64,000 nucleotides of DNA, taken from IMG/VR virus record IMGVR_UViG_3300020429_000539, positions 108,263 through 172,262 of that record; one strand, 5' to 3'. This DNA is from a virus. Its lineage: Duplodnaviria > Heunggongvirae > Uroviricota > Caudoviricetes. This document shows, piece by piece, positions 3,479-63,444 of the stretch (position 1 is its first letter; each line of letters starts with the position of its first letter). The notes beneath the pieces were generated by a model. It saw only the letters and a program-made list of their open reading frames with translations, did no database searches and was not told where the DNA came from. The position numbers were made by a program, and so were the translations under genes.

Positions 3479-3859
3479 TTAAAGTCTGAACTGACTTCCT
3501 CGTTTTTCGGATTTCTCGTTGAACTTTTTCCGAATAGCTTCTCCCAGGTCTATACCCGCACGGGCGGCAGCCAGGTCAGCGTAGATGACGGTATCGGCTA
3601 GCTCTTCTGCAAATGCTTCAATACGTGCCTGTGTCCAGACATCATCGTTGCCTCCGCACTCTCGCTTGATTTTCTTGGCTACATTGGCTGCCTCGCCTGC
3701 TTCTCCTGCCATAGCGCCGGACCATTCTAGTAAGTTCCATTCATTGATTCCATGATAGCATTCTTCGCATCGTGCGGTATTGACCTCGCGAAGCTCATCA
3801 AACGAAAGCGGCTTTACATCAGTGTCAGTCGTCGAAGATGTCTGCTGTGTATCTGGCAT
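3479..3859 (-). CDS. MazG-like nucleotide pyrophosphohydrolase
   Basis: All-alpha NTP-PPase signature: 'LLEWSGAMAGEAGEAANVAKKIKR' (EExxE-type metal-binding helix) and 'EELADTVIYADLAAARAGIDLGEAIRKKFNEK'. Confidence 0.6.
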   Translation of the reverse strand: MPDTQQTSSTTDTDVKPLSFDELREVNTARCEECYHGINEWNLLEWSGAMAGEAGEAANVAKKIKRECGGNDDVWTQARIEAFAEELADTVIYADLAAARAGIDLGEAIRKKFNEKSEKRGSQFRL

Positions 3860-24410: not shown

Positions 24411-24698
24411 ATGAGCGATGTCATCAGAGCCCCGTGGACAGAAGAGCAGGTCAAAGAGCTTAAGAGGTATCAGGCAGCCGGTGTTGTCCATCCGTATACC
24501 TGCGGTGGCGATAGCTGCCGAGATATCCTCGTTCCCACCACAGATGGTTGGACCTGCCCTAGCTGCGACTATACTCAGGATTGGGCGCACGCCATGTCTG
24601 CTGATAGTCAGTTCAACGACAATACGGAAAAAATCGAAGAGCTTATGAGTGAAGCCTTGAAGCAGTCTACAATGGACGACAATGACAGCAAAGACTGA
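24411..24698 (+). CDS. small zinc-ribbon-like protein
   Basis: 'PYTCGGDSC' ... 'WTCPSCDY' give two Cys pairs. The start was moved to 'MSDVIRAP'. Confidence 0.45.
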   Translation: MSDVIRAPWTEEQVKELKRYQAAGVVHPYTCGGDSCRDILVPTTDGWTCPSCDYTQDWAHAMSADSQFNDNTEKIEELMSEALKQSTMDDNDSKD

Positions 24699-25957: not shown

Positions 25958-26362
25958 TTGCGTCGTCATCGCACTCTTTCCTACTACCGTCGCCCTAGAA
26001 TTCGCGGACGAGCTAAGCTAGAGGTTCGCATCAGCAGAGAAGGCAGGCACTATACTGCTGTAGGCTATGTTCGATATAGAAACAGAAGAGAAAGAATCGG
26101 CTTTATTATTGCTAGCAAAGAATCAGGTTGCAAATATTTGACCGTCGATGAAGCCCGACTCTATTTCAAATGGGTAGGCAGAGGGTATGGTCATATACTT
26201 TACTGGGCTCTTGCAAAGCAAGCGATTCGCATGGGGCTGAAAGGGCTTCGTTCAGACTCTTATGGCCGTAATGAGTGTTCAGATGGAGCATGGAGCAAAA
26301 TCCAGACTCACACGAGAGGTCAATATTCGTACCTGAAACTAGAATCACAGAGAGCAGCATAG
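25958..26362 (+). CDS. basic protein, possible GNAT-like fold (uncertain; start uncertain)
   Basis: Arg-rich N-terminus from a TTG start. 'WVGRGYGHILYWALAKQA' resembles the GNAT motif A (R/QxxGxG). Confidence 0.3.
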   Translation: MRRHRTLSYYRRPRIRGRAKLEVRISREGRHYTAVGYVRYRNRRERIGFIIASKESGCKYLTVDEARLYFKWVGRGYGHILYWALAKQAIRMGLKGLRSDSYGRNECSDGAWSKIQTHTRGQYSYLKLESQRAA

Positions 26363-27003
26363 TGGTCCCAATATTCAAGCTCGATACTGAAGAACTTTGG
26401 AAAGAGTTTCTTATCACGCGCAGCGATCGCTTGCGTGATGAGCTTGTCAAAAGGCAAATGCCTTTTGCATCTGGTATCGCTTTTCGAGTTGCTTCTACTG
26501 TTGATACTTCTATTTGCCCGCCTGAAGATATACAAGCGGCTGCGCTCGCTGCGATGATTACATGCATAGATAAGTTTGATGAGAAGGTTGGATATTCAGA
26601 AGAAATCGACCGTCGCTTTACAGGGTATGCTCGTCAGCGAATTCATTGCGCTTGTATCGATGAGTTTCGAATGCATTGTTGGATTAACCCAAGATCCAAT
26701 ATGGCAAAGAAGCATGGTATACAGCCTGTGGAGCTAAAAGAAAGGCGATGCGATACCCGACCGCTTGAAGATGCCATTGATTGTGCGGACATTTCGTGCA
26801 TTATCAGCAGCAATCAATGTCAGTTGTCTGAAGACGAACGCTTTGTTCTCAAATCGATCTATTTCCATGACATGACTCAAAATGAGATTGCTGAGATTCT
26901 TGGCCTCAATAGTACTGCTATCGGTAAACGAAAGCACGATGGCTTGAACAAAATCAGGCATTATATCGCAAAGCAAAAGCAAGATAGGTTGGTTGCCACA
27001 TGA
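26362..27003 (+). CDS. sigma-70 family RNA polymerase sigma factor (phage-encoded)
   Basis: C-terminal region 4 HTH 'MTQNEIAEILGLNSTAIGKRKHDGLNKIRHY' and region-2-like 'YARQRIHCACIDEF'. The start is set at the GTG overlapping the upstream stop (TAGTG). The ORF table extends it to 26275. Confidence 0.55.
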   Translation: MVPIFKLDTEELWKEFLITRSDRLRDELVKRQMPFASGIAFRVASTVDTSICPPEDIQAAALAAMITCIDKFDEKVGYSEEIDRRFTGYARQRIHCACIDEFRMHCWINPRSNMAKKHGIQPVELKERRCDTRPLEDAIDCADISCIISSNQCQLSEDERFVLKSIYFHDMTQNEIAEILGLNSTAIGKRKHDGLNKIRHYIAKQKQDRLVAT

Positions 27004-31183: not shown

Positions 31184-32857
31184 ATGTCAGAGATGCTTTC
31201 ACCCCTCATGATGGCTATTGCAGTCATCTCCATCCTCGCCGGTCTCGGCGGCGGTGGCTGGATGCTGCTTACCGGCAAACGCAAGGTCGGACCTGTCCTT
31301 GCCGTCATCGGTATCGGTGGCTTTTTCCTGTTCGGATGGCTTTCTTCGTTCCGTCACATTCCCACTGGTCGCATCGGCGTGGTCGAGAAGAAGATGCTCG
31401 GCGCGTCTCTCAAGAGCGGCGATATTATCGCTGTCAACGGCGAGATGGGCTATCAGGCAGACATTCTTCGCGATGGCCTTCAGTCTGGTTACTGGCCCTT
31501 TATCTTCAACGTCGAATACTACGACCTGCTCGAAGTCGAGAAGGGCAAGGTTGGCGTTGTGACCGTTCGTGACGGCAACGCGCTTCCCGCTGGCGAAACT
31601 TATGCGCCTGAGTGGGATGACGTTCACAAGATGCTCGACGCCACAACCTTTCTGAACTCTCCCAATGGCTTTAGCGGCCCGCAGGCGACTGTGCTTCCTC
31701 CGCAGGTTTATGCCTTCAACCCCAAGCTCTACACTGTCGAGCTTCGTGACGCAACCATCATCAATCCTGGTTCTGTTGGCGTTATCAAGTCGAACGTCGG
31801 AACCATTCCCGATGATGTCGGCGATGACGGTATTGTCCCCAAGGGTTCGCGTGGTATCTGGAGTACCGCGTATGGACCGCAGACCCTCTACATCAATCCT
31901 GATGCCTACTACGTCATTGAGGTTCCCACGACCATCAATATCGTGGACTATACGGCTTCGGAAGAGAACAACGACGAGTTCACGCAAGCGTCGCTTGAGA
32001 ACTCGATCGATGTCAAGACGAGCGACGGGTTCAAGTTCCCGATTGACGTGCGCATCGAGTACCGCATCACGCCTGACCATGCTCCTACGGCGGTCGCCTA
32101 CTTCTATGATGACCGCACGAAGAACATCCACAAGAAACTGCGCCAGAAGATGAACTCGACGGTTCGTTCGGTGTTCCGTAATAACGCCGAAAGCGCCGGC
32201 GCTCTCGAATACGTCAACAACCGTTCGCAGCAGGAGAAAAGCTGCTTTGCCCTCATCGACGAGGAAATGAAGCAGTACGGCGTGACCATCACGAAGGTTG
32301 CCATCGGCGATATCGACCCGCGTGGCGAGTCCGCTGAACTTGCGGCGCTTCTGAAGACACAGACCGACAAGCAGATCGCTGTTCAGCAGGAGCAGACCTT
32401 CGCTCAGCAGCAGGCGGCGGCTCGCGAAGAGCAGAAGCTCAATGACGAGAACCAGCGTGCCCTTGAAATCAAGCGACTCGCTACGGCTGACTTTGATGAC
32501 CAGATCGCTGAGCGCGAAGCTGCCCGTCAGCTTAAGCTCGCCAACGCCGAGGCCGAGGCTATTCGTCTTCGTACCCGCGCGGAAGCTGACGGTATCCTTG
32601 CTGTTCAGCAGGCAGAGGCAGAAGGCTACAGCGCTAAGGCAATGGCAGTCGGTGGCTCGAACCTCGCAATGATTGAGTTGTTCGAACGCATTGCTTCGGG
32701 TAACATCGATATCACCCCCGATATCGTCATCGGCGACAACAGTGGCGAGGGCGGCAATGGTACGATGAACGCCATGCTTGCCCTCTATGTTCGCCAGATG
32801 GTTGACAGCATGAAGGCTGAGCCGGTCAGCGTGACCGTTCCCGCGTCCAGCGAGTAA
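31184..32857 (+). CDS. SPFH/band-7 (flotillin-like) protein
   Basis: N-terminal TM helices, an SPFH-like core, then a long coiled coil with Ala/Glu 'EA' repeats ('LANAEAEAIRLRTRAEADGILAVQQAEAEGY') as in flotillin FloT/YuaG. 557 aa. Confidence 0.7.
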   Translation: MSEMLSPLMMAIAVISILAGLGGGGWMLLTGKRKVGPVLAVIGIGGFFLFGWLSSFRHIPTGRIGVVEKKMLGASLKSGDIIAVNGEMGYQADILRDGLQSGYWPFIFNVEYYDLLEVEKGKVGVVTVRDGNALPAGETYAPEWDDVHKMLDATTFLNSPNGFSGPQATVLPPQVYAFNPKLYTVELRDATIINPGSVGVIKSNVGTIPDDVGDDGIVPKGSRGIWSTAYGPQTLYINPDAYYVIEVPTTINIVDYTASEENNDEFTQASLENSIDVKTSDGFKFPIDVRIEYRITPDHAPTAVAYFYDDRTKNIHKKLRQKMNSTVRSVFRNNAESAGALEYVNNRSQQEKSCFALIDEEMKQYGVTITKVAIGDIDPRGESAELAALLKTQTDKQIAVQQEQTFAQQQAAAREEQKLNDENQRALEIKRLATADFDDQIAEREAARQLKLANAEAEAIRLRTRAEADGILAVQQAEAEGYSAKAMAVGGSNLAMIELFERIASGNIDITPDIVIGDNSGEGGNGTMNAMLALYVRQMVDSMKAEPVSVTVPASSE

Positions 32858-50474: not shown

Positions 50475-50723
50475 ATGGATGCATTCATGAAGTTCATGAC
50501 AGTCTTGATCGTCGTCGTTCTTGCCTACGCTGGCTGGCAGGTTGTCACGGGTAGCAACGTCTTCGCAAACGCCGTCGTCTTCGCCGTGGGATGCCCTATC
50601 CTCGGTATCATGATTTGGGCGTGGCTCGACGACCCGAAGCGCAAGTATCAAAAAGAGATGCTGAAGCTCGCCAAGTTCTACGAAGCAAAAGCAAAGGCCA
50701 TCGAAGCAAAAGAAAAGAGCTAA
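50475..50723 (+). CDS. small 2-TM membrane protein
   Basis: 'FMTVLIVVVLAYAGWQVV' and 'AVVFAVGCPILGIMIWAWL'. Confidence 0.5.
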   Translation: MDAFMKFMTVLIVVVLAYAGWQVVTGSNVFANAVVFAVGCPILGIMIWAWLDDPKRKYQKEMLKLAKFYEAKAKAIEAKEKS

Positions 50724-50724
50724 C

Positions 50725-51015
50725 ATGCTGGTCGAGACGATCAACCCGTATCTCGTGCCGTTTGTTCTTCTTGCTGTTTTCCTCGGCGCGTATGCTCTCT
50801 CAGAAACGGCCTGGAACCTCGCTGAACGCATCTCGCCCCGCAAGAGAAGCACGGGTCACATGCAATCGATGATGGGCCTCTGGGCTCTCGTTATCGCCCT
50901 TCTGATAACCTTTGAAGCCTGGCTCCTTGTCGCTGCGTTCTTTGCTCTTCCCATTGCTCTCGCAATTCTTGAATGCCTTGCCGAAGCCAACCGAAAGACA
51001 AAGAGAAAATCATGA
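50725..51015 (+). CDS. small membrane protein
   Basis: 'YLVPFVLLAVFLGAYAL' and 'LWALVIALLITFEAWLLVAAFFALPIALAIL'. Confidence 0.5.
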   Translation: MLVETINPYLVPFVLLAVFLGAYALSETAWNLAERISPRKRSTGHMQSMMGLWALVIALLITFEAWLLVAAFFALPIALAILECLAEANRKTKRKS

Positions 51016-51461
51016 AAAGCAAACCAAAATCGCGCAAAGAGAAAATCCAAGAAAGACTATCAGAAGTCGATGCTGAAATGGCCGCTGCCGATGAACTCAT
51101 CGACGGCCCACCCAAGAAAAAGAAAGAAAAGCCCAGCGCCTGCGAGCTATACGAGCAAGCCAGAGAAGAACAACAACTCCATATCAATAGACCCGTCGAG
51201 ATATGGACGCTCTATCGCGTCACAGACGCAGGCGAACACAAGCTCAGAACGTTCTATTGCCAGGATGGACAGTTCACGGATGGCGGAGTATTCATAGGAA
51301 AAATGTACAACAGGTCGCCGCACGCCTACGGAAGATACGTCAGCCTCGCCGTCAAGCTGCCAGAAGGCTCATACCTCAAGTTCGAAGGCATACTGAGCTA
51401 CAGAGAATACCTGAACCTACCTCCCGAAGACCAAACACCGATGCTGCCATACGTCGAATGA
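51012..51461 (+). CDS. hypothetical protein (149 aa)
   Basis: ATGA-coupled start 'MKSKPKSRKEK'. Confidence 0.5.
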   Translation: MKSKPKSRKEKIQERLSEVDAEMAAADELIDGPPKKKKEKPSACELYEQAREEQQLHINRPVEIWTLYRVTDAGEHKLRTFYCQDGQFTDGGVFIGKMYNRSPHAYGRYVSLAVKLPEGSYLKFEGILSYREYLNLPPEDQTPMLPYVE

Positions 51462-51530
51462 ATCGAAATCTTTGAATAGTTGCAGCGAGTGAAAGGCGTT
51501 CCGAGTAGAATAAGCTCAGCGAGAAACACG

Positions 51531-52094
51531 ATGCTCAACGAGAACTGGAAAAAGAAAATAGGCATCGGACAACCAGTGCGATACTGGCAAGCCGTGTTCT
51601 TCGGCCTCGGATATCTCGCCCTCTTCAACCTCTTCGCCATCATACTCGTCAAACAAAACAGAATCGATGACATCCAGCAGTTCGCGCTCGGATACCTCAC
51701 AGGTATCATCGGTATCAATCTCATCGTCTGTGTCCTCGATATCGAAGAACGACTGCAACCCCTCGAAGATAAAATCCACGCAAAACTCAAAATTCTCGCG
51801 CAAAAACTAACAACACGACAAGAAGAAGAGTACAAACCAGACCCAACGCTCCTCGAAGACGCAATGGCCGTACTCGACTACGATATCCTCACAGCTATAG
51901 AAGACCCAGAACACACAGAATATCTTACGACAAAGCTCATGCCCAATCACGACCAGAAAAGGCTCGAAGAAGCAATCAAGAACATCAACAACCATAAGTC
52001 AATCATGAACCAGCCTTCCACGTACGTCTACTCGCCACCCATGCCAATGTCAAAGCAAGGGCTCGCAAGAGAAGCAATGAGCAGGAAAGATTGA
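51531..52094 (+). CDS. membrane protein (start uncertain)
   Basis: 'WQAVFFGLGYLALFNLFAIILV' and 'LGYLTGIIGINLIVCVL'. Confidence 0.4.
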   Translation: MLNENWKKKIGIGQPVRYWQAVFFGLGYLALFNLFAIILVKQNRIDDIQQFALGYLTGIIGINLIVCVLDIEERLQPLEDKIHAKLKILAQKLTTRQEEEYKPDPTLLEDAMAVLDYDILTAIEDPEHTEYLTTKLMPNHDQKRLEEAIKNINNHKSIMNQPSTYVYSPPMPMSKQGLAREAMSRKD

Positions 52095-52451
52095 ATGACA
52101 GACGACCTGAACATCCCAACGAAAGAAGAAGCAACCATCGAAACGGTTGCCCTCGTTGCATATATCAACCACAGAGAAATCGCCGTCGAAAATATCAAAA
52201 GAGCAAGACGAGAAAACAACAGACTACACCTGCTCAATCTCGTCGCATCGTTCCTCACAGGACCACACATCGCGGATACAATCGTCGGATACGTCAACAA
52301 CGACACAAACCAAACAGCAGCAATACTGACAGTCGCAGGAATCGCGAGCATCGTCGCAGGATTCGCGAAAATGACAAAGAATCACAAAACGATTCTGGAA
52401 CAGTTCAAAGTACTCGATGAGTTGTGCGAGACAGAAAAGAATGAAAAATGA
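52095..52451 (+). CDS. hypothetical protein (118 aa)
   Basis: Coupled ORF. Hydrophobic 'TAAILTVAGIASIVAGFA'. Confidence 0.45.
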   Translation: MTDDLNIPTKEEATIETVALVAYINHREIAVENIKRARRENNRLHLLNLVASFLTGPHIADTIVGYVNNDTNQTAAILTVAGIASIVAGFAKMTKNHKTILEQFKVLDELCETEKNEK

Positions 52452-52768
52452 CGCCAGAACAAAAACAACTCGAACAGTCACGAGAGATCCACCAACGTAG
52501 GCTCGAACTCCAAAAAGAAACGCTCAAACGAATCGAGAACATCAAGAAAGCAACGAAGCTGTGGGACTGGCTCAGCCTCGTTGTTGCCGTGTTCACAGGA
52601 TGGATGCTCAGAGAAGTCATCGTTCATGACCCCAGACTGTGGGCATACACCGGCACAGGACTAGGGTGCCTGTTCATCATCGCCGCGCAAGTCCTCAACC
52701 AAAGACGAACACGAGAAGCATGCGAAATGTTTCACGAAGTCTTTATGAAAGAAGAACAGGAAACATAA
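52448..52768 (+). CDS. small membrane protein
   Basis: ATGA-coupled. 'WDWLSLVVAVFTGWML' and 'LGCLFIIAAQVL'. Confidence 0.5.
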   Translation: MTPEQKQLEQSREIHQRRLELQKETLKRIENIKKATKLWDWLSLVVAVFTGWMLREVIVHDPRLWAYTGTGLGCLFIIAAQVLNQRRTREACEMFHEVFMKEEQET

Positions 52769-52769
52769 A

Positions 52770-53045
52770 ATGGAGTTCTCGACAACAGCCTTCCTTGTTC
52801 TCTTCGCCGTCTTTCTTCCCGTTGCATACTGCATCAGGTACGCCGCCGCAGCATGGTGCTACGAGATGGCGATGAAACCATCGAAACGAAGACTCCTCAC
52901 GGTCATCGACGCCACCGCAGCCAGCGCGCTCTCAGCGGCAGGATGGTGGCTCATCGGTGTGCCGTATCTCTTCTACCCGCTCGTCGTCGCCGCAGCGTTT
53001 CTGTACTGGAACGACCAGAAGCATCAGGAAAAAGAAACAACATGA
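52770..53045 (+). CDS. small membrane protein
   Basis: 'AFLVLFAVFLPVAYCI' and 'SAAGWWLIGVPYLFYPLVVAAAFLYW'. Confidence 0.5.
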   Translation: MEFSTTAFLVLFAVFLPVAYCIRYAAAAWCYEMAMKPSKRRLLTVIDATAASALSAAGWWLIGVPYLFYPLVVAAAFLYWNDQKHQEKETT

Positions 53046-53413
53046 AGCACAGAACAATACTTCACAAGCGGATTCTCAGAGAACGAAAGGCCTCGCCGTT
53101 CGGACCTGTCAGAAAGCCGAATAGCAAAGATTACAGAATGGTCGAGTTCCAAACAGATGCCCTACTGAGCCAAGACGGTCTATACCGAACAGCCCGTATC
53201 ATTGCTGAAAAGATACGCTCCCAAGAACCAGAGTTTGGAGCCACCGGCATCCGAGACCTCGAAGACGGAAGCAAAGTCATTTACACGCTGCCTATACACA
53301 AACACAGAACACAAGTGTTCGTTGATGAACTCGGAGAACTCGAAGGCGTAATGAACACGAAAACACTCGAACTACCCGTCGAGTTCAAGGCAATCCTTGA
53401 TTATAGGTCGTAA
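53042..53413 (+). CDS. hypothetical protein (123 aa)
   Basis: ATGA-coupled start 'MKHRTILHK'. The ORF-table extension to 52853 is an overlapping frame. Confidence 0.45.
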   Translation: MKHRTILHKRILRERKASPFGPVRKPNSKDYRMVEFQTDALLSQDGLYRTARIIAEKIRSQEPEFGATGIRDLEDGSKVIYTLPIHKHRTQVFVDELGELEGVMNTKTLELPVEFKAILDYRS

Positions 53414-53539
53414 ACAAGGTTTTTGGCGTTCACTGTACGGGAAAATATAGATGCGCTCGAAAGCCGTATATTAGCGCGTCTTTAGTTTCCAACTCTTAAC
53501 TTATCCCAGGAAAAAGTTAATTACCAGGTTTTTGAAACT

Positions 53540-53998
53540 ATGCTAACTGCTTTTTTAGATGCAATAACTAGTTTACCACATAGGCCATTTTTGGTTGGCG
53601 GCTACATTCTTTTCTGTTGTTCTTTCACTGTACGGGTCTTTCAGTCGTGGCATCGTCACAAGTTTTCAGTGCGTCAGTGGGACTTCCATGACAAAACCAT
53701 CGTCTTCCTCGCCTGTCTCTTCAGCGTTCTGACTTTCTGTCTTCCTACGTTCTTTCTTTGCATCGAACTCTATGTTCGCAGCAAGCGTCAGAAGGTTATC
53801 GAAAAGTTTAGAGGAGCAACATCGGTTCGTGTTCCTGAGAATACAGACAGGTGGCATCATCCGTCTGGCGATGTTCGTGGTCTGTGTCCTTGGGCTATCG
53901 TGCCTGTGGGCGAGCTTGAACAGCATGGTTTCTACGTGGAGCCTCCGTCAGACCCGAGGATGATGGGTACTGTGGCTGGCACTGTTCCTGTGCGTTGA
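53540..53998 (+). CDS. membrane protein in AT-richer island
   Basis: 'FLVGGYILFCCSFTV' and 'IVFLACLFSVLTFCLPTFFLCI'. Base composition is visibly AT-richer than the flanks. Confidence 0.45.
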   Translation: MLTAFLDAITSLPHRPFLVGGYILFCCSFTVRVFQSWHRHKFSVRQWDFHDKTIVFLACLFSVLTFCLPTFFLCIELYVRSKRQKVIEKFRGATSVRVPENTDRWHHPSGDVRGLCPWAIVPVGELEQHGFYVEPPSDPRMMGTVAGTVPVR

Positions 53999-54012
53999 AC
54001 TGTAGTAAACCT

Positions 54013-54025
54013 TGCACTGATTCGG
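54013..54025 (+). repeat. 13-bp direct repeat TGCACTGATTCGG (left copy)
   Basis: Identical to 55951-55963. It lies 15 nt upstream of the ATPase ATG and is followed by the -10-like 'CGATAAT'. Confidence 0.7.
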
Positions 54026-54039
54026 TTCGATAATACGGT

Positions 54040-54741
54040 ATGAAAATACGTGGAATACATATACGTGGAAAAAACGCTCTGAGAGACGTTTCTTTGGAGT
54101 TCATGGACGATGAGTCTCGAATCCTACAACAATGCCTAATTCAGGGCTCTAATGGGTCTGGAAAGACATTCATTTTTGAATCAATAGCTCGCGGGTGGAG
54201 TTCTAGTGTTCTGGAGCGTAGTTCGAACGAGTGTGGTTTGGTTGCTGACATGGTTCGTGTGGACTACGAGTTGCCTGGTGAGATAGCTAGTGTTCATATA
54301 CGTTCTGGTCGTTTGGAGCGTAGTAGTTCTTTAGCGAAGCATGCAGATGTAGCTGTGACGGAATCTGGTGGTCATGTTCGCAGCGGCGTTGTTTTTTATG
54401 ATTTGAAACGATTGCGTTTGGTGGAGCAGACATTGGATGGTGGGAGTAGTCTTCCTACTGGGGTACAGTCTGTTCTTCCTATTCTTCACGACTTGCATGT
54501 TCGTGACATAACTGACAGCGTTGTGATGATAGATGATTGGGATTGCGGGTTAGATTCTTCTAGTTGCGCGGAATTTTATAAGCATCTGGTCCGTCACACG
54601 CATGCCAAGAATAATCAGTTGTTGTTGTCTTCGAGCGCTGAGCCGCCTGGTTACATTCCTGCTCGGAACGTCAAGCGTCTCAAAGATGGGTGCAACGTCA
54701 TCTCTGATGCTCTAGCACTGATAGGCAAAGTCCACTCATGA
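54040..54741 (+). CDS. compact ABC/RecF-like P-loop ATPase
   Basis: 'IRGIHIRGKNALRDVSLEF' (N-terminal beta-hairpin), Walker A 'LIQGSNGSGKT', signature-like 'LPTGVQSVLPIL', Walker B 'SVVMIDDWDCGLD' and H-loop-like 'LVRHTH'. Only 233 aa. Confidence 0.55.
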   Translation: MKIRGIHIRGKNALRDVSLEFMDDESRILQQCLIQGSNGSGKTFIFESIARGWSSSVLERSSNECGLVADMVRVDYELPGEIASVHIRSGRLERSSSLAKHADVAVTESGGHVRSGVVFYDLKRLRLVEQTLDGGSSLPTGVQSVLPILHDLHVRDITDSVVMIDDWDCGLDSSSCAEFYKHLVRHTHAKNNQLLLSSSAEPPGYIPARNVKRLKDGCNVISDALALIGKVHS

Positions 54742-54878
54742 AATATACGCCTGTGATTATTTGTCGTGGCTGCATGCCCAAAGGAAGCTACATCCATCAG
54801 GGCGCAAAGATGAAGATTCAATGCCTCAAATGCGGCAGAAAATGGCATGGCGAAAAGCTTGTTCGTGCTGGTAAGTAA
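54738..54878 (+). CDS. 46-aa zinc-ribbon protein
   Basis: ATGA-coupled to the ATPase. 'CRGCMPKG' ... 'CLKCGRKW'. It is not in the ORF table because it is under 60 aa. Confidence 0.4.
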   Translation: MKYTPVIICRGCMPKGSYIHQGAKMKIQCLKCGRKWHGEKLVRAGK

Positions 54879-54880
54879 AG

Positions 54881-54900
54881 TTATCCCCTTAAGGGGATAA
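54881..54900 (+). terminator. perfect 20-bp palindrome TTATCCCCTT|AAGGGGATAA (hairpin; terminator or operator)
   Basis: Exact inverted repeat lying 2 nt after the zinc-ribbon stop. There is no T-run on +, but an A-run follows, so it is equivalent to a T-run for a minus-strand transcript. Confidence 0.4.
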
Positions 54901-54942
54901 AAACTTCTTGCCAGATTTTTCAAGGAGTTTCGTTGCTGGTTT

Positions 54943-54965
54943 TTGTATTTCCAAGGGAAATACAA
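54943..54965 (+). promoter_or_regulatory. palindrome TTGTATTTCC-aag-GGAAATACAA preceded by T-run
   Basis: A 10-bp perfect stem in the 320-nt non-coding stretch of the island. Confidence 0.4.
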
Positions 54966-55221
54966 CTGCCGCTTGGTATGTGGTAGGCCTCGTGCGTTCG
55001 GGTTGGCAACAGCTATTTGAACCGCTTGTGTTTTGTTAGGCGTTGTAAACTTAGGCACCCTTCAAATCCTATGTGGGACTTGGTTAGTTTCTTGCACTGC
55101 GCGGGAAAGTTTATATTCTATGTGAAAGCTAGCACTGATAGGTTAAATCTTCTAGCACTGATTAGTAAACTGTATGTGTTAGGGCTTGTATATAGTGGCA
55201 TAGCTTTTGCTAGCTAGTTTG

Positions 55222-55932
55222 CTATGTGCTGAATCGTTCTAATTCTCGTCGTCTGTCTATATAGTATGTGTCAGCTTCTTCTGACTTGTGAGCTATGATT
55301 TTCCAGGGTAGTCCCCAGTGAAGTCGGAGAAGGTTCTCAACGAGTCGTGACGTAGCACTGTTTCCGTCTTCGAATGGTCGGATGGCGAAGAGTTCGAGGC
55401 TGAGCTTCTTGCACTGATTGGCAAGTTCGCCTCCTTCTTCTTGGCTATACATTCCGTACTCGATGGTATCTATGTTGTCTTTTTCAACTTTTACTGCGCG
55501 ATTAATCCAGTTGCAGAGTAGTTCGGGAACATCGAATGGATTGGGTGCCTGGAAGTTTCCGTAGGCGGAGCGATGGATGTAGTCTTGTGTTCTGAAGACG
55601 CCGATGTCTGACGGATGTATGAGGGTGCTGTCTTCTGCCACGAGTCCGAGTTCGGCGATGGGTCTCATGATGTTTCGGTGGAGGCGCTTGAGCCATCCGA
55701 GCGAGTTGTCGAGTTGGAATCGATTTGGGCACTCGATGAGGAGGTTCTCGTCTTCGGCGAGTTGCATGACGAGGGTGATGGCGCGGAGATGACCTGCGAC
55801 GTATGGGTCGCTGTCTGTCTTGCCGAGAGTTTTTTCAATCTTTGACCTGTCCATTGGGATACGGTCGAGCCGGTGGGTATGATAGATGTAAGCTATCAGG
55901 GTATCCTGGTCGGGTTCGGGAAAAGTTCTCAT
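55222..55932 (-). CDS. Fic/Doc-family protein with degenerate active-site motif
   Basis: 'FAIRPFEDGNSATSRLVENLL' aligns to the Fic motif HPFx[DE]GNGRxxR with His->Arg and GNGR->GNSA, so it is probably non-canonical or inactive. Helical content is appropriate for the Fic fold. It is the only minus-strand gene in the region. Confidence 0.5.
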   Translation of the reverse strand: MRTFPEPDQDTLIAYIYHTHRLDRIPMDRSKIEKTLGKTDSDPYVAGHLRAITLVMQLAEDENLLIECPNRFQLDNSLGWLKRLHRNIMRPIAELGLVAEDSTLIHPSDIGVFRTQDYIHRSAYGNFQAPNPFDVPELLCNWINRAVKVEKDNIDTIEYGMYSQEEGGELANQCKKLSLELFAIRPFEDGNSATSRLVENLLRLHWGLPWKIIAHKSEEADTYYIDRRRELERFST

Positions 55933-55950
55933 ACACGCATTATCGGTTCA

Positions 55951-55963
55951 TGCACTGATTCGG
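55951..55963 (+). repeat. 13-bp direct repeat TGCACTGATTCGG (right copy) followed by tandem GGATGAACG x2
   Basis: Identical to 54013-54025. It sits just upstream (on the minus strand) of the Fic-like start, separated from it by an 'ATTATCG' (= CGATAAT on the coding strand). Confidence 0.7.
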
Positions 55964-56028
55964 ATGAACGGATGAACGTATGCGCGGGAGTCAGTCGGGA
56001 CATCGTGCGATACCGAACGGTCTGCAAA

Positions 56029-56090
56029 AAGATGGGTGCAAGGGTGGACGCCTTGCGAGTGAAGACTTACACTTGTAAGATGGGTGCAAG
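56029..56090 (+). promoter_or_regulatory. two direct copies of AAGATGGGTGCAAG 48 bp apart
   Basis: Copies at 56029-56042 and 56077-56090. The same 14-16-mer recurs at 61105-61120. GCGAGTGAAGA also repeats at 56055 and 56152. The pseudo-ORF 55873-56175 translates this region as '..KKMGARVD..CKMGARGFS..'. Confidence 0.55.
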
Positions 56091-56191
56091 GGGATTCTCG
56101 GACCTTGGATCGCCAAAAAGTTCCGCGACTTGGATTCTGGGGCTCAGGCTGGCGAGTGAAGAAAGTTTCAAGTGAAATGGAGGCTGCGATA

Positions 56192-57052
56192 ATGGGCAAC
56201 AGAAACCGAGTCGGCGCACGGAAGGGTCGCCGATGCAGACCTACAGGAATCGGTATGCCCATCAAAAAAGGCGAACTCAACTGCGAGACGTACTATGCGC
56301 ACGCAAAGGAAGCGGACGCTCCTGCGAAGCAGCGACCTGAGTCTGTGGTTGCCCGTCACGGCGGCAAGCAGAAGATTCGTCGTCACCACCTGACGCGAGC
56401 GCAGATGGACAGCCTCATGGAGGCTATGAAGCAGCAAAACAGATGGTTGTGTCCGTTCAATCCGCCCAAGGCGTATTGGGGCCTCGTGGAGGCTCTCTAC
56501 CAGTTGGGTCCGAACAAGCGACATCTCTTCGGCGCGGTCTACGCAAAGATGCAGGAGATCATGTCGAAGGACGAGTATCGAGATGCCGCAGGACGGACGG
56601 CCTGGGAGAAGTTCGAGGGCAAGTCGAACCGCTCGCCATCAACGGGCAAGGACGCCTTTGACCGCATCATGCAGAACATCCGTGTTCTTCAGCGTCTCGG
56701 CGGAGCCAACCCGTATGGGCTGAAGCTGGCCCAGGTCGGCGCGTGCATCAACGTCTACGGCACGAAGAGCAAGCCCTACGTCGAGCTTCAGATTGGGATT
56801 CGTTCAGGCGAAGATGTTGCTCCTGTCAATGAGGCTCGTGAGCGGAACTATCCGAAGAGCATTTCTGCCGTCTCTTCAGGTTTCATGCCTGGCGACGAAA
56901 CGTATGTGGTTGACTGGTTGAGCTTGGACAAGCTCGCTGCGCCTTCGACTCTGGCGGACGCGGTGGCCGAGGCCGAGCAGGATGTTGATGGCCTTGTTCC
57001 CGTGCGGGACATCGGCGATCCTATTCCTGTGCGCGAAAATGACGCGACCTAA
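56192..57052 (+). CDS. hypothetical protein (286 aa)
   Basis: GGAGG lies 8 nt upstream of the ATG at 56192. The ORF-table start at 56084 is a GTG inside the repeat region. Confidence 0.55.
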   Translation: MGNRNRVGARKGRRCRPTGIGMPIKKGELNCETYYAHAKEADAPAKQRPESVVARHGGKQKIRRHHLTRAQMDSLMEAMKQQNRWLCPFNPPKAYWGLVEALYQLGPNKRHLFGAVYAKMQEIMSKDEYRDAAGRTAWEKFEGKSNRSPSTGKDAFDRIMQNIRVLQRLGGANPYGLKLAQVGACINVYGTKSKPYVELQIGIRSGEDVAPVNEARERNYPKSISAVSSGFMPGDETYVVDWLSLDKLAAPSTLADAVAEAEQDVDGLVPVRDIGDPIPVRENDAT

Positions 57053-57082: not shown

Positions 57083-57147
57083 CGGCTACGCTATCGAGGG
57101 CTGTTGTCTGAGACGCAACAGAAACCCTCAACCCTTGGAGTCGAATC

Positions 57148-58551
57148 ATGCCGAAGAAGACCGCGAAGAAGACGGCCCGTAGGACGGGCACTCCCGACCG
57201 CATCCAGTTTGTGGCTCCGACCACGCCCAACGACCACCTGATTCGTGACGCGATCAAGGTGTTCAATCTCTCGGGCTCGGATGACGGTCCCCAGATTCTT
57301 GGCCTCTTGCAGCAGCATCGTCAGAACATCGACACGATCGTTGATGATGCTGAGCGCGTGTCGCTGTGTGCGGAGAAGGGGTGGGACGAGCCGACCGAAG
57401 CCGAGCGCGTCGCCATCATCCATGACTTTATCAAGTCGTCGGGCGAGAAGAGCGAGAGCGAGTGGGTTTCGTGTCTGTCGCCTGACCGTCAGCGCGTGGT
57501 GGACCTGCCCAAGTACTTCCGCCTGCGCCGTCAGCGCCTCAACGAGCAGATTCGCCAGATTCGGCGGAAGATGCGCGAGGCCGAGAAGAAAATGTCGCGC
57601 GAGATGGACGCGCATCAGAGCCAGATCGAGGGCAATCCTCTGTCGGTTTCGTGGGCGGCTGCGCTCGATGATGACGCGCATGTTCCGATTGAGCGTGTGC
57701 CGACCGGCGACCCGTTGCTCGATGATTGGTTCGGCTTCAACCTCTTGGAGGATGGGACCAAAGAGGGCGGCATGACGATGGGGCATACGTACCTTGTCGG
57801 TGCGGAGCGCGGCATGGGCAAGACTCGTTGGCTTGTCGAGATGTGCGGTCGCCTCTGTGGTCCGCGTCAAATCGACTACATGGGCCGCGAGTTTGGTGGT
57901 CTGCGTGGCCTTTATATCCAAGGCGAAGAGACGCCCCAGCGGTTTGCCAAGATGTTCGCGAGCAAGGTCTGGCGTCCCGATGTTCACGACGTACATCTGT
58001 CGGATACGGCTGTGTTCATGCAGCAGCACGAATCGCTTATCCGTCAGTTGCGCCCGCAACTTATCATCATCGACTCGAAGGACATGATGAAGGATTGGCG
58101 TCATCCGCGCGACGCGGAGAACGCGGTCAAGCTCTACAACCATTGGGCCGAGAAGTACGGCTTCATTCTCTTTATCATTTCGCATGTCAATGCGAAGGGC
58201 GAGATCAAGGGCGGCACGAATCTGCCTCACATGGTTCGTGCGGTTATCAAGGGCTACCGCGACCAGCACGACCCCAACTCGTTCCACCTGCTCATGGATA
58301 AGAACCGTGGTTCGCAGGCGAATAAGACTGTTCGTTGGCGGCACGGCGAGGATACGGTTCATCTTGTGGACCCGAAGAAGGGTCATACGGTGGTCCGCAC
58401 CGAGTTGTCTCCCGATATGGCGGTCCTCTCGGACGCTGTTGATGAGGCGACGGCGCGGCCCGTGTCGTCTGCGATGCTCGACGCTGTTGAGGCGGCGGAG
58501 CGTGGGGACGCTGTTGAACCTGCTAGGTTGGACGACGACTCCGAGGGTTGA
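57148..58551 (+). CDS. DnaB/RecA-superfamily ATPase (helicase-like, AAA_25-type)
   Basis: Walker A 'LVGAERGMGKTRWLVEM', Walker B 'QLIIIDSKD' and 'LFIISHVNAKGEIKGGT' give the RecA-like core in the C-terminal half. 467 aa. Confidence 0.55.
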   Translation: MPKKTAKKTARRTGTPDRIQFVAPTTPNDHLIRDAIKVFNLSGSDDGPQILGLLQQHRQNIDTIVDDAERVSLCAEKGWDEPTEAERVAIIHDFIKSSGEKSESEWVSCLSPDRQRVVDLPKYFRLRRQRLNEQIRQIRRKMREAEKKMSREMDAHQSQIEGNPLSVSWAAALDDDAHVPIERVPTGDPLLDDWFGFNLLEDGTKEGGMTMGHTYLVGAERGMGKTRWLVEMCGRLCGPRQIDYMGREFGGLRGLYIQGEETPQRFAKMFASKVWRPDVHDVHLSDTAVFMQQHESLIRQLRPQLIIIDSKDMMKDWRHPRDAENAVKLYNHWAEKYGFILFIISHVNAKGEIKGGTNLPHMVRAVIKGYRDQHDPNSFHLLMDKNRGSQANKTVRWRHGEDTVHLVDPKKGHTVVRTELSPDMAVLSDAVDEATARPVSSAMLDAVEAAERGDAVEPARLDDDSEG

Positions 58552-58642: not shown

Positions 58643-58730
58643 TGCTGCTGGCGTGGTATACTGACAACGGCGACAGAGGCGAGCGCCTCGGCCTAGTTCA
58701 TGGTTCATCCCTCTCACGGAAGGAAATGGC

Positions 58731-60026
58731 ATGACGACGATGGTGGAAACGATGGAAGAGGGCTCGGCTGCGGTCGAGCGGTTTGTCAGCGACGAGCGCG
58801 GCTTCAACAGCGACACCGAGGACAAGGTTGTGTCTCGGATGCGGAGCCCGACCGACGCGCTGATGCAGCTTCGTCGCGAGGGGACCGGGCGGTTCGACCT
58901 CGCGGTGGACGACGCGAACCTCCTGAATCTGGAGGCGAGCGACGACGGAACGATCACGATGGCCCCGACGATGCGGCTCGCGGACACGAGCGCGTCTGGC
59001 GCTTCGCTGGCTGCCGACCTCGACAAGCGTGGGTTTATCCCCGTGGACCCGAGCGCGGTCAACCAGCTTTGCTCTCTCATGGGCATCGCGGGCGGTTGGA
59101 AGACCTACCAGAAGCGCTCGCGTCCGGCGCAGTCGTTCATGCGAGACGTGCGCGACACGTTCGGCGGCAAGAGCGGCGCGACGAAGTTTGTCGTTCGCAC
59201 GACGGGCGACGGCTTCGGCAATCATCGCGTGGAAGCGTTCTTCGACGCCAACGCCGAGCGTCCCGATTCGGGCCGCGTGGTCGGCGGTATCTTCCGCGCC
59301 ATCCTTGAGAAGTATGGGGATGTGATTCGCGGCGTGGAGATGATTCGCCAAGTCAACACCGGCGTCGGCTCGATGCGCATTCTCTTCGGCGACCCCGTTC
59401 TGCGCGAGCGGACGAGCGACCCGATGAAGCGCATCTATCCGATGATGGACCTCTTCATGTCCGACCGTGGCAACGTCACGCCCGAAGCGTCGTTGGGCCT
59501 GTGGCGTCTGTGGTGTCTCAACGGATGTACCTCCAAGGATTTCGCGCTGGCGCGGCTCCGCATGGATTCCGAGGGCGGCATGGATGCGTTCATCGAGGGC
59601 GCGGGCAAGCTCGTCAACGCGGCGATTCCGTTCGCCCACGCCATCGCCACGCGGCTCGATGGACTCCAGGACCGCCCGCTCGCCAAGAGCGCGAAGGATA
59701 CCATCGACCTCATCGAGGCCCGTGGGCATATCTCCAAGGGCTTCGCGGAGGATCTTGACCGCTACCGCACGATGGGTCGCGAGGGCGAGGTTGAGACCGA
59801 GTGGGGCATGTTCAACCTCTTTACCGATGCGGCGAGGATGCGTGGGTCGGTCGCCTCTCGGCGTGGGGTCGAGAACAAGGGCCTTCAGTTTGCCCTTGCC
59901 GATGGTGGGTTCAGCGGCGTGGCCGATAGCGGCTTCAACCGCTCCCAGTTTGCTCGCCAGATGAAGGGTATCTGGGAGGACGCTGGGCTTGAGATTCCGA
60001 CCAAGGCTCAGGCGCGGCTCAACTAA
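58731..60026 (+). CDS. hypothetical protein (431 aa)
   Basis: Well-balanced composition and an SD 'GGAAGGAAA'. The long antisense ORF 58698-60044 is R/A/H-rich junk. Confidence 0.55.
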   Translation: MTTMVETMEEGSAAVERFVSDERGFNSDTEDKVVSRMRSPTDALMQLRREGTGRFDLAVDDANLLNLEASDDGTITMAPTMRLADTSASGASLAADLDKRGFIPVDPSAVNQLCSLMGIAGGWKTYQKRSRPAQSFMRDVRDTFGGKSGATKFVVRTTGDGFGNHRVEAFFDANAERPDSGRVVGGIFRAILEKYGDVIRGVEMIRQVNTGVGSMRILFGDPVLRERTSDPMKRIYPMMDLFMSDRGNVTPEASLGLWRLWCLNGCTSKDFALARLRMDSEGGMDAFIEGAGKLVNAAIPFAHAIATRLDGLQDRPLAKSAKDTIDLIEARGHISKGFAEDLDRYRTMGREGEVETEWGMFNLFTDAARMRGSVASRRGVENKGLQFALADGGFSGVADSGFNRSQFARQMKGIWEDAGLEIPTKAQARLN

Positions 60027-60049
60027 TCGGGCACCCCTAACCAACTCCC

Positions 60050-61150: not shown

Positions 61151-61203
61151 CTCGGTGAAATCGGAAACTGTCAGCAACGATCCCCAACGACTAGGAGCCG
61201 AAC

Positions 61204-62778
61204 ATGCCGAGCGTGACAGTCCCCAAGCAGTTCTACATCGACGAGCGGGTCCGCCTCTACCCTGATTGGCAGGCTGATTTCTGGCGCGAGTTCGGACAGA
61301 ACAGCCGCGACGCCCGTGCCAGCGTTATCGACTTCCGCGTCGAGCCTGCTGAAACCGGCTGCGTCTGCACGGTCGAGGACAACGGCTGCGGGATGTCTCG
61401 CGAGGTCTTGGAGGATGTCTACTTCGCGCTCGGCAAGACGACCAAGACGGGCGAGGGCAACGTGGGCGGCTTCGGTCGCGCTCGCATCCTGACATGCTTC
61501 TCGCACAAAAGCTACCGCATCAACACAGGCACCTTGCAGGTTGATGGCGACGGCGGCAACTACGATATCATCGAAGCCGACTATCAGCGCGGCTGCAAGG
61601 TCACGGTCGAGGTCGATGATGCCTCTCGCGAGCAGATGCTCGCCAAGCTCAAAGAGTACCTTGCATACTGCCAGTTCGGCGATATCACGGTTAGGGTCAA
61701 CGGATTCTCCTTTACCGACTGGCTTTACAAGCGCAACAAGATTCGTGACCTGTCCTTTGCTTCGGTCCATGTCAACAAGAGCGGTCGCCAGCATCGCGTC
61801 GTGTTCCGCGTCAACGGGCAGTACATGTTCTCTCGTTATACCGATGCTGCTGCACAGGTCGTTGTCGAGATCCACAGCGACAAGAGTCGTGAGGTTCTCT
61901 CTGCAACTCGTGGTGGTCTGATGGGGAAGTATCAAGAGGAACTTGATAAGTTCCTCGCCGAACTCTCCGTCGATACTCGAAGCGCTCTTCGTCCTCGCGT
62001 GGACAACTCTCGTTTGGTTCGCAGCGACGGTGGATGGCTCGCGTCGGTTCGCAAGACGAAGCAGGCACCTGTTGAAGCCGATGCCGCTCAGGGTCGCGAG
62101 AAGGTTGCGCAGACTCCGCGAGAGAATGTTACGACGACAACAGACGACCGCGCGACTGTTCTCGGAGGCGCTGCTGCCTTCAGCGGTGGCAAGACCCAGA
62201 TGCTTCAGGAGCGGCCCGAGTGGGGAGTGCCTGTCGATGAGCGTCCTCGCTTCATCGCGCCCAACCTTTTCAACGTCTACATCAAGGACGAAACGGGCGA
62301 CCCCAAGATGAAGCGCGTCATCGATCAGTATGACCCGAAGAACTGGGTTCATACCGAGCAAGTTCTCAAGGGCCAGACTCGTCATTACCGCAAGGGGGCT
62401 GAGCATCTGAAGCTGCTGATGGCGTGGAAGCTCTGCTGCGAGGAAGCCATCAACGTGCTGATGGAGCGGCGTGGATACGACAACATCGTGTGGACGGCTG
62501 GTTGGCTGTTCTCCCCGTATGCTGAGGCGATGCATACGGTCGTGGACGGCACGGCTCACGCGCTGCTGCTCAACCCGGTCACGGGCGATGGACGCAAGCG
62601 ATACACCCTCAAGCGAGAAACGGTTCTCGAACTGTTGGCGCTCGCGGCGCACGAGGTTGCACACGTAACAGTCCCGCTCCACAACGAGGAGTACGCCAAT
62701 CTGCTGACCGACATCCAGCGGCGGCTCGATCAGAACTCGGTTTGGCGTCGCGTCCGGACCGAGGTCAAGGGGCTCTGA
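61204..62778 (+). CDS. GHKL-superfamily (histidine-kinase/Hsp90/MutL-type) ATPase
   Basis: N-box 'EFGQNSRDA', G1 'VEDNGCGMS' and G2 'VGGFGRARIL' form the Bergerat fold in the N-terminal 110 aa, with a long unknown C-terminal region. 524 aa. Confidence 0.6.
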   Translation: MPSVTVPKQFYIDERVRLYPDWQADFWREFGQNSRDARASVIDFRVEPAETGCVCTVEDNGCGMSREVLEDVYFALGKTTKTGEGNVGGFGRARILTCFSHKSYRINTGTLQVDGDGGNYDIIEADYQRGCKVTVEVDDASREQMLAKLKEYLAYCQFGDITVRVNGFSFTDWLYKRNKIRDLSFASVHVNKSGRQHRVVFRVNGQYMFSRYTDAAAQVVVEIHSDKSREVLSATRGGLMGKYQEELDKFLAELSVDTRSALRPRVDNSRLVRSDGGWLASVRKTKQAPVEADAAQGREKVAQTPRENVTTTTDDRATVLGGAAAFSGGKTQMLQERPEWGVPVDERPRFIAPNLFNVYIKDETGDPKMKRVIDQYDPKNWVHTEQVLKGQTRHYRKGAEHLKLLMAWKLCCEEAINVLMERRGYDNIVWTAGWLFSPYAEAMHTVVDGTAHALLLNPVTGDGRKRYTLKRETVLELLALAAHEVAHVTVPLHNEEYANLLTDIQRRLDQNSVWRRVRTEVKGL

Positions 62779-62913
62779 AAGTTGTCCACATTTTTTGCTC
62801 CTTTGGCCTAGGTCGGTTGCCAACATGAAAAGATTTTGATAGACTCGCGACGCGACGGAAAAACTCGACAAAACGGGAAAAGTACCAGGACATAAGAAAG
62901 TGGGGTTCCAAGG

Positions 62914-63444
62914 ATGACAAAACAGACACCACTTCAATCCCTGGTCGATATCAACTCTTCTGAGTTCGATACCGACCTGGGACAGTACCACGAAGTCTTG
63001 CGCCAGAGGAAGGCGGAGTTCGTGGGTTGGGTTCGTAATCAGGTTAGCGCACGAATCACGACGATGCGAGAAGGCAAGGCACGCGACAATGTTGTGGACT
63101 TTGAGACCCGCAACTGTCTAACGTTTGAGCTTGACTTCTGGGCAGGTCGTTGGTTCAAGATGTACGGCAAAGATAACCGCCCGCCCGAAGCCCACATCCG
63201 TCATCTCGAACAGAAGTTCGCAGGCATGTTTGATGATGATGATGATGAAGTCAACATCGAAGCCGCACCTGGTCTTCCGCTGCTGCATAAAGCCGTGATG
63301 GACCAGGATTTAGAAGAAGTCAAGCGCCTCATCGAGAAGGGCGCTGAGATCACTCGTAAGGATAATGGTGGGCGAACAGCCCACGAACGCGCTGAAGCGA
63401 TGGGGTTCGATAACATCGCCGAATTCCTGGCTGGCGTGGCCTAG
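62914..63444 (+). CDS. hypothetical protein with ankyrin-repeat-like C-terminus
   Basis: 'PLLHKAVMDQDLEEVKRLIEKGAEITRKDNGGRTAHERAEAMG' is an ANK-like helix-turn-helix repeat. The stop overlaps the palindrome GGCCTAGGCC. Confidence 0.45.
   Translation: MTKQTPLQSLVDINSSEFDTDLGQYHEVLRQRKAEFVGWVRNQVSARITTMREGKARDNVVDFETRNCLTFELDFWAGRWFKMYGKDNRPPEAHIRHLEQKFAGMFDDDDDEVNIEAAPGLPLLHKAVMDQDLEEVKRLIEKGAEITRKDNGGRTAHERAEAMGFDNIAEFLAGVA

Follow-up and report, generated by a model that had tools for sequence, protein, structure and literature searches.

A small ABC-type ATPase gene and a convergent Fic-fold gene flank a motif-rich intergenic region beside the replication genes of a marine phage-like element

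Two convergent genes and the motifs around them

We analyzed positions 53414-56191 of a 64,000-nt stretch of DNA (the window, to which all coordinates refer) from a marine phage-like element that is uncultured and about 0.5 Mb in size, with contigs that reach 477-502 kb. The segment holds two convergent genes, one for a small ABC-type ATPase and one for a Fic-fold protein, and between them lies an intergenic region of ~340 bp whose GC content of 42% is the lowest of the segment (Table 1). Copies of a short motif, which we call M1, lie in and around both genes. We found the exact ATPase on 85 contigs, the longest of 502 kb and many of them from Tara Oceans; in the strain of the window, a 477-kb contig has the module in its interior, at 311-318 kb. 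A first-pass annotation had read the segment as an AT-rich island that carries an acquired cassette between direct repeats. We propose instead that it is the conserved left edge of a block of replication genes.

The ATPase has a Walker A motif (GSNGSGKT) and a Walker B motif (VVMIDDWD); G36, G41, K42, D165, and D166 are conserved, as is the D-loop. Its AlphaFold2 (AF2) model is an ABC head with a predicted local distance difference test score (pLDDT) of 92.9, and the closest structures in Foldseek are PtuA (9e91 and 9e90), OLD (6p74), AriA (8v48), and the SMC head, with further likeness to FtsE and to the nucleotide-binding domains of transporters. The protein thus has the Walker motifs, the D-loop, and the head fold of an ABC-type ATPase, and its original description as a small ABC/RecF-like ATPase holds. 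Its matches to the P-loop and ABC families of Pfam are all below threshold (AAA_21 scores 20.8 bits and the cut-off is 27), and the PADLOC model of PtuA matches N-terminal residues 1-60 only (3e-10). Of the elements that ABC ATPases need for hydrolysis, the LSGGQ-like signature is degenerate (LPTGVQ, ~20 residues before Walker B), and the H-loop position reads NQLLLSSS, without a histidine and with an invariant Q193. A profile search of 1.84 billion representative proteins found 129 relatives, and most of these have 200-240 amino acids, which makes this a family of stand-alone heads.

The protein on the opposite strand matches the Pfam family Fic (PF02661) at 28.9 bits (cut-off 24). Its AF2 model has a pLDDT of 93.1, and the best Foldseek matches are BT_2513, FICD, and CdFic, with probability 1.0 and template modeling scores (TM-scores) of 0.58-0.68. 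The profile of its family matches FICD at 4e-8, with IKPFeDGsNRiaRLvEN aligned opposite IHPFIDGNGRTSRLLMN of FICD. These results place it in the Fic/Fido superfamily, and the model indicates a class II fold. The motif of an active Fic protein is HxFx(D/E)GN(G/K)RxxR, with the catalytic histidine at its start. The motif of the window's protein is RPFEDGNSATSR and the family consensus is KPFxDGSNRxGR, and neither of these fits the active pattern. The catalytic histidine is replaced by arginine in the window and by lysine, arginine, or glutamine in 25 of 25 clusters of the family; in the window's lineage the first arginine of the motif is lost too (NSATSR). By its sequence, the protein is predicted to be unable to perform canonical histidine-dependent catalysis. 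Because the histidine is lost across the family, we view the protein as a conserved pseudo-enzyme and not as a decaying gene. A Fic protein with a degenerate catalytic motif is what had been reported, and Pfam, the fold, and the motif itself bear this out, with the addition that the degeneracy extends to the whole family. The N-terminal helix (HTHRLDRIP in the window, HTNRLERIP in the family) aligns with HTVAIEGNT of FICD. Compared to the inhibitory motif (S/T)xxxE(G/N), the threonine and an acidic residue are kept, and arginine takes the place of glycine or asparagine.

Table 1. Features of the segment and of nearby or related parts of the window (L-numbers are contigs of relatives)
Feature	Position	Strand	Remark
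FliA/WhiG-like sigma-70 family factor, 242 aa	26275-27003	+	TIGR02937 52.4 bits (cut-off 42.9); Pfam Sigma70_r4
Conserved non-coding leader	53422-53539	+	identity to close relatives above that of coding sequence
M1-like copy TTCACTGTACGGG	53430-53441	+	in the conserved leader
Predicted membrane protein, 152 aa	53540-53998	+	kept solely in close relatives, ~75% nucleotide identity
M1 copy (first 13-mer)	54013-25	+	CGATAAT 2 nt further on
CGATAAT	54028-34	+	ends 5 nt before the ATPase ATG
ATPase, 233 aa	54040-54741	+	stand-alone ABC-type head
M2 AAGATGGGTG with M1 CTAGCACTGATAGG	54683-92 and 54712-25 (within 54683-54725)	+	3' end of the ATPase gene; composite kept in L003-L006
CxxC open reading frame (zinc ribbon), 46 aa	54738-54878	+	CxxC-N17-CxxC
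Perfect 20-bp palindrome TTATCCCCTTAAGGGGATAA	54881-54900		stem conserved, loop variable among relatives
Second hairpin TTTGTATTTCC-AAGG-GAAATACAA	54942-54965		compensatory changes in relatives (pairs 102/111, 104/109)
Intergenic hub	54966-55221		blocks perfectly conserved
CCACATA-type motifs in hub	54977-83, 55070-76	-	further TATGTG blocks
M1-type copies in hub	55091-55105 (degenerate), 55129-55143, 55152-55166	+
Fic-fold protein, 236 aa	55222-55932	-
M1 copy inside the Fic gene	55408-22	+
CGATAAT	55939-45	-	6 nt before the Fic ATG; kept in L003
M1 copy (second 13-mer)	55951-63	+	not kept in L003
M2 copies AAGATGGGTGCAAGGG	56029-56044, 56077-56092	+	invariant, in the divergent region before p250
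p250/p286	56192-57052	+	opens the conserved replication block

M1 is an asymmetric motif of ~13-17 bp with the consensus CTAGCAC[T/C]GA[A/T]TGG(GAA). Exact copies of a 13-mer, TGCACTGATTCGG, lie at 54013 and 55951, as originally noted. The core GCACTGAT occurs at 54014, 54715, 55132, 55155, 55411, and 55952, which makes six copies in 1.9 kb, all on the plus strand, and there is just one more copy elsewhere in the 64 kb. The recurrence of a core had also been noticed, and the repeated copies are real; the inner coordinates given for them were approximate, the copy at 54715 was overlooked, and the site near 55091 is degenerate (GCACTGCG). The copy in the leader has a counterpart at 53626, within the gene for the 152-aa membrane protein, where CACTGTACGGG occurs a second time; CACTGTACG, at 53431 and 53626, is a variant of M1 and is likewise conserved. 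Directly after the second 13-mer, at 55961-55982, there is a tandem repeat of CGGATGAA (2.8 copies). Another motif, M2 (AAGATGGGTG), is always on the gene strand: it is found before p250 (2-3 copies), before the gene for a GHKL ATPase, and at the 3' end of the ATPase gene, with further positions at 61108 and 63719, and it is invariant across lineages.

In the window, a CGATAAT box precedes both the ATPase gene and the Fic gene, and an exact M1 13-mer adjoins each box. The layouts are TTCGATAAT-N5-ATG for the ATPase and ACCGATAAT-N6-ATG for Fic. The first-pass annotation had described these as -10-like boxes before each gene, and for these two genes the placement is right; the heptamer as such is not enriched (11 found in the window and 7.9 expected), and the third copy, at 56187, runs into the ATG of the gene that follows. 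Among 39 CGATAA sites, only 2 have the start of a long open reading frame (ORF) 6-7 nt downstream, namely those of the ATPase and Fic genes. We rejected CGATAA as a general promoter because no other copies are suitably placed. The ATPase and Fic genes have no Shine-Dalgarno sequence, whereas the neighboring genes, and the ATPase genes of relatives, have GGAG-type sites. The ATPase box and both 13-mers are peculiar to the window's lineage: in L003-L006, the M1 and CGATAAT block before the ATPase gene is missing, and there is a mini-ORF with MORN repeats and an AGGA-type ribosome-binding site instead. The boxes resemble the -10 consensus of sigma-28 promoters, GCCGATAA. A leaderless promoter of this type would have its -10 box ~7 nt ahead of a transcript start at the ATG itself, and the spacing at both genes fits this. 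The element has its own sigma factor, given the FliA/WhiG-like gene at 26275-27003. A consensus scan for sigma-70 promoters and strong intrinsic terminators gave counts at or below the expectation from shuffled sequence. Leaderless, co-regulated transcription of the two genes is plausible from the arrangement of these elements.

The intergenic region begins with two hairpins. The perfect 20-bp palindrome was correctly identified from the start and is probably a hairpin or a bidirectional terminator. In an alignment of four lineages, the motif blocks of the region are perfectly conserved and the sequence between them drifts; GGCATAGCTTTTGCTAG comes directly after the stop codon of the Fic gene. 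We also considered a structured non-coding RNA and rejected it, as the covariation term of RNAalifold was +0.19 (no support from covariation) and a scan of the region with Rfam gave a chance-level match only, to no family. Beyond the segment, at 57103-57125, there is a conserved hairpin that contains TTGTCTGAG(A/G)C, ~35 nt upstream of the AAA_25 gene and just past an M1-like motif; it is found at the same place in L003, L008, and L009, and its role may be that of a leader or attenuator.

Conservation of the locus among relatives

The order of the genes is the same on every contig that we fetched: the ATPase and Fic genes converge, and p250, an AAA_25 gene (DnaB/RadA-like), and p430 (~430 aa) follow. 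Most loci go on with a protein of ~200 aa and a GHKL ATPase; in the window, the genes after p250 are the AAA_25 helicase-like gene (57148-58551), p430, p200, and the GHKL ATPase gene. We found this arrangement in L001/L002, L003-L006, L007 (a 487-kb Tara scaffold), L008, L009, L011, and L013; nine independent relatives have it, down to ~32% identity. The ATPases of these relatives are 91% (L003-L006), 50% (L001/L002), 44-47% (L007, L008, and L009), or 32% (L011 and L013) identical to the window's. Compared to L007, the identities are 47% for the ATPase, 49% for Fic, 39% for p250, 36% for AAA_25, and 39% for p430; compared to L011, they are 32%, 31%, 43%, 27%, and 28%. Judging from these identities, the ATPase and Fic proteins co-diverge with their replication neighbors or diverge more slowly.

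None of the relatives has an empty site, that is, a single copy of the repeat with the genes missing. In the closest relatives both 13-mers are missing at the matching positions, even though the genes between them are present. With no empty site and no target-site duplication, we conclude that the ATPase/Fic pair is core. Of 123 equal-sized windows, 29 (24%) contain some exact direct repeat of 13 nt, so the pair of 13-mers is uninformative by itself, and it gains significance solely because the motif family is conserved across relatives. The composition of the segment is also ordinary. Its GC content is 47.4% (49.6 +/- 4.8% in equal-sized windows, 38% of which are lower), and its tetranucleotide distance from the profile of the window is unremarkable; the segment looks AT-rich because the replication block to its right has 61.5% GC. 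The first-pass annotation had proposed a survey of related genomes for presence or absence of the segment between the repeats and a comparison of its k-mers and GC content with the flanks. Both were run: the relatives carry the segment without any repeat-bounded polymorphism, which is the outcome that the annotation itself had said would refute its reading, and neither an AT-richer island nor an acquired, repeat-bracketed cassette is compatible with the fixed synteny, the co-divergence, the missing 13-mers, and the ordinary composition.

The 46-aa ORF is different. Its start overlaps the stop codon of the ATPase gene (ATGA) and it encodes two CxxC pairs, so the earlier description of an ATGA-coupled, zinc-ribbon-like mini-ORF is accurate; its Pfam matches are all below threshold. 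The ORF is an insertion of ~140 bp, placed after the stop codon of the ATPase gene and before the hairpin, and L003, L005, L006, and L001 lack it. We found the exact protein on 61 contigs, and neither local tblastn nor a search of 5.8 billion proteins found homologs or paralogs other than identical copies. Judging from the contigs compared, this ORF is specific to the window's lineage and is the sole real presence/absence difference in the module.

M1 is present in every relative, clustered around the ATPase gene and always in its orientation. There are nine copies in L001 (five before the ATPase gene and four after it), five in L007, eight in L008, four in L009, four in L012, and two or three in L013. 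L011 has three tandem copies of CTAGCACTGAAT exactly between the two stop codons, with a regular period of 28 nt. We found CACCGAAT 12 times in L008 (0.30 expected) and CACTGAAT 8 times in L001 (0.71 expected). L001 also has perfect tandem repeats at 3562-3642 (27 bp x 3) and 3901-4007 (33 bp x 3); these are interleaved with M1 copies, within a non-coding stretch of ~870 bp upstream of the ATPase gene. A literature search with the core 10-mers of M1 returned only primers and the Rob site of micF. The M1 consensus shares 11 consecutive bases, AGCACTGAATG, with this E. coli micF Rob/MarA site (PMC13335620), which we treat as a lead only.

The motif family extends to the replication genes. In L007-L009, the variant TCACCGAAT is found 30-100 nt upstream of p250, AAA_25, p430, p200, and the GHKL ATPase gene. 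In both lineages, 28 nt separate its CAC from a conserved GTCAAC ahead of p200, and a TATC-type hexamer is ~17 nt from the variant before p200 and before the GHKL ATPase gene. In the window's lineage, CCACATA[CG]GAT is present at the matching sites (57071, 58631, 60115, and 61138). Because the variant sits at fixed distances upstream of replication genes, the M1 family behaves like a promoter or activator element.

Similarity to L003-L006 begins at 53422, and the sequence upstream of this point is strain-variable; the relatives hold ORFs with MORN repeats there, and their contigs break inside them, which is why many contigs stop just upstream of the module. In the window, 50700-53413 is a run of small A-rich ORFs (AT skew of +0.3 to +0.4) that encode predicted membrane proteins and are missing from the closest relatives. 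This is probably a strain-variable region and the likely source of the assembly breaks. Six long contigs of relatives stop 1-4.4 kb before the ATPase gene, and we considered whether a genome terminus might lie near the module. We rejected this because the ends fall in the MORN-repeat ORFs or the hypervariable stretch and because the module lies well inside the 477-kb contig.

Among 185,579 species-representative genomes, the sole match was L012 (CAZKPY010000002.1), a 21-kb contig that was binned with Candidatus Saccharibacteria. Its Fic homolog is 33% identical, with M1 copies directly adjoining. L012 could be viral and mis-binned, or it could point to the host; a single 21-kb contig is too weak for a host assignment. 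L003, L004, and L005 have a second Fic-domain ORF (159 aa; 11186-11665 in L003), ~9 kb downstream of the module.

The window also has cargo that is unusual for a phage-like element: a GH56 hyaluronidase-like protein, an RtcB RNA ligase, a MoxR-type AAA_3 ATPase with a DUF2201 metallopeptidase, an SPFH/Band 7 protein, and a DNA methyltransferase (at 6949-8217, 24682-25953, 10937-14163, 31184-32857, and 18979-19869). Further ORFs match dCMP deaminase, NUDIX, trypsin, two DUF6065 proteins, and ankyrin repeats. Long antisense ORFs of 431-606 aa, at 57091-58386, 58698-60044, and 61171-62991 (minus strand), face the GC-rich replication genes; these ORFs are probably composition-driven shadows and not real genes.

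What the pair and the motif array may do

We propose that the two core genes flank an intergenic control region that is packed with M1, and that a putative sequence-specific factor reads the M1 family. In the window's lineage, two exact M1 copies have been placed directly upstream of the CGATAAT -10-like boxes, which would put both genes under one control and would give them leaderless mRNAs. The ATPase and the dead Fic protein would act together, probably as a nucleotide-binding, non-toxin accessory pair in early expression or in the set-up of replication. To this proposal, by which the pair is core, shares its regulation, and sits at a promoter/operator hub where the replication block begins, we give a probability of roughly 55%.

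Several observations weigh against this proposal. M1 in the window (GCACTGAT) differs from the gene-proximal CCACATA motif, so different factors may read the two. No recognizable -10 accompanies the array copies at a constant spacing, so the arrays cannot be read as plain stacks of promoters, and one copy in L011 is 16 nt from the called start codon, which is too close for a -35-type element. The phage identity of the backbone is tentative too. We infer it from the size of the element, the packing of genes on one strand, the overlapping start and stop codons, and the largely ORFan content; there is no structural gene within the 64-kb window, blastn and tblastn against INPHARED gave no match, and neither did a scan of IMG/VR with the alignment of the ATPases. 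A comparative overview of jumbo phages does not mention Fic.

The M1 copies could instead be the iterons of a replication origin, at which an initiator binds, the AT-rich intergenic region melts, and the AAA_25 protein is loaded, with the ATPase and the Fic protein as accessory factors of the origin. This would account for the four to nine same-orientation copies, irregularly spaced and on both sides of one gene (as in L001), for the low GC content between the genes, and for the adjoining helicase-like, RadA-like AAA_25 gene. The locus is also unique within the 64 kb, and at ~53.4-53.8 kb the cumulative GC skew has a local minimum and the AT skew changes sign. But this dip in the skew is local, with no inflection of the window as a whole, and the motif family is also found upstream of each replication gene at promoter-like distances, which suits the control of transcription better. 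Such repeats usually diverge quickly along with their initiator, whereas here a 12-mer persists while the proteins drop to ~32% identity, and no recognizable initiator was found. We consider an origin unlikely. A role at the level of RNA seems more doubtful still: transcribed intergenic repeats (UAGCACUGAAU), for instance from the M2 and M1 composite at the 3' end of the ATPase gene, would bind or titrate a regulator that binds RNA in the 5' leaders of the replication genes, as a sponge-type small RNA. Every copy is in the sense orientation relative to the plus strand genes, the gene-proximal copies are within likely 5' leaders, the period of the L011 array is regular, and hairpins bound the region. 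Some copies are found within coding sequence or ahead of the ATPase gene, which speaks against a sponge, as do the lack of covariation and the lack of an Rfam match, so we think it improbable.

The last alternative is a toxin-antitoxin, abortive-infection, or defense/counter-defense cassette, along the lines of the first-pass annotation, with sensor and effector roles for the ATPase and the Fic protein, or with the two as decoys for defense ATPases of the host. PADLOC and the structure search do match the ATPase best to PtuA, AriA, and OLD, but these matches cover the head only, with TM-scores to the target of 0.3-0.4, and the ATPase lacks the insertion of PtuA. It also lacks a nuclease partner: no HNH or Toprim gene, such as would mark a Septu (PtuAB), PARIS (AriAB), or OLD system, is beside the ATPase gene at any locus. 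Fic/Doc proteins are classical toxins, and this one weakly matches the PDC-S04 and SoFic models of PADLOC, but the catalytic histidine is missing from every cluster of its family. The region just upstream is hypervariable, which speaks for such a cassette, yet the context of the pair itself is fixed, its inheritance is vertical, and both proteins are more conserved than the helicase. The two genes are convergent, do not form an operon, and have separate upstream regions, and their divergence is clock-like, none of which fits a type II toxin-antitoxin system; and in bacterial genomes we find just one 21-kb contig from a metagenome-assembled genome. Given the dead motif, the convergent layout, the missing nuclease, the fixed synteny, and the strong conservation, we believe that a conflict module is very unlikely, although a decoy or anti-defense role is conceivable.

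A defense-like ATPase and a Fic protein between direct repeats look like a mobile conflict module, and this tempting reading is the one that the comparison with relatives corrects: the pair is vertically inherited, core, and better conserved than the replicative helicase-like gene. For an abundant uncultured element of the Tara Oceans samples, this defines a family of ~220-aa stand-alone ABC heads, a Fic family without the catalytic histidine in any member, and a deeply conserved cis-motif, which is a first handle on the gene regulation or replication control of the element. More speculatively, and with low confidence, the mini ABC ATPase, the histidine-less Fic protein, and the M1 array might form one undescribed site-specific nucleoprotein device of a marine megaphage-like clade. 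On the array, a DNA clamp gated by ATP would assemble with a pseudo-enzyme that binds nucleotides, and the assembly would activate or license the adjacent replication genes or the origin, with the pseudo-Fic protein as a regulatory subunit and not a toxin. If both proteins do work on the motif array, the Fic fold would here serve a new, non-catalytic purpose.

Comparison with known systems

The consensus of the marboxes that are read by MarA, SoxS, and Rob is AYnGCACnnWnnRYYAAAY. Like the marboxes and the MotA boxes of the middle promoters of phage T4, M1 would belong to the asymmetric motifs of ~10-20 bp that replace or overlap the -35 element and precede several genes of one block. Unlike in those systems, no MotA-like or AraC-family protein was identified here, and the motif also forms dense arrays of four to nine copies without a -10. 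The initiator genes repA of P1 (with oriR and incA) and repE of F are flanked by iterons. As in those plasmids, repeats in the same orientation are on both sides of one gene, beside replication functions; but here the gene between the repeats codes for an ABC-type ATPase instead of a winged-helix Rep protein, and the repeats also mark the upstream regions of other genes.

The ATPase shares the head fold, Walker A, Walker B, and the D-loop with PtuA (of Septu and retron Ec83), AriA (of PARIS), and OLD, which belong to Pfam AAA_15/AAA_21. It differs from them in that its family has just ~220-240 amino acids and no helical or dimerization insertion, in having neither a fused or adjacent nuclease (HNH or Toprim) nor the histidine of the H-loop, and in forming its own family of short proteins that score below the Pfam cut-offs.

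The Fic protein resembles the class II Fic proteins (FICD/HYPE, Clostridium difficile Fic, and Bacteroides BT_2513) in its fold, over all 236 residues, and, in part, in an N-terminal helix with T-x-x-x-E/D at the position of the inhibitory motif. Unlike them, it has no tetratricopeptide repeat (TPR) or winged helix-turn-helix (wHTH) extension, and its family has no catalytic histidine and has GSN in place of GNG. It also has a C-terminal block, RLxENLLRLNWGLPWK, that is peculiar to this family.

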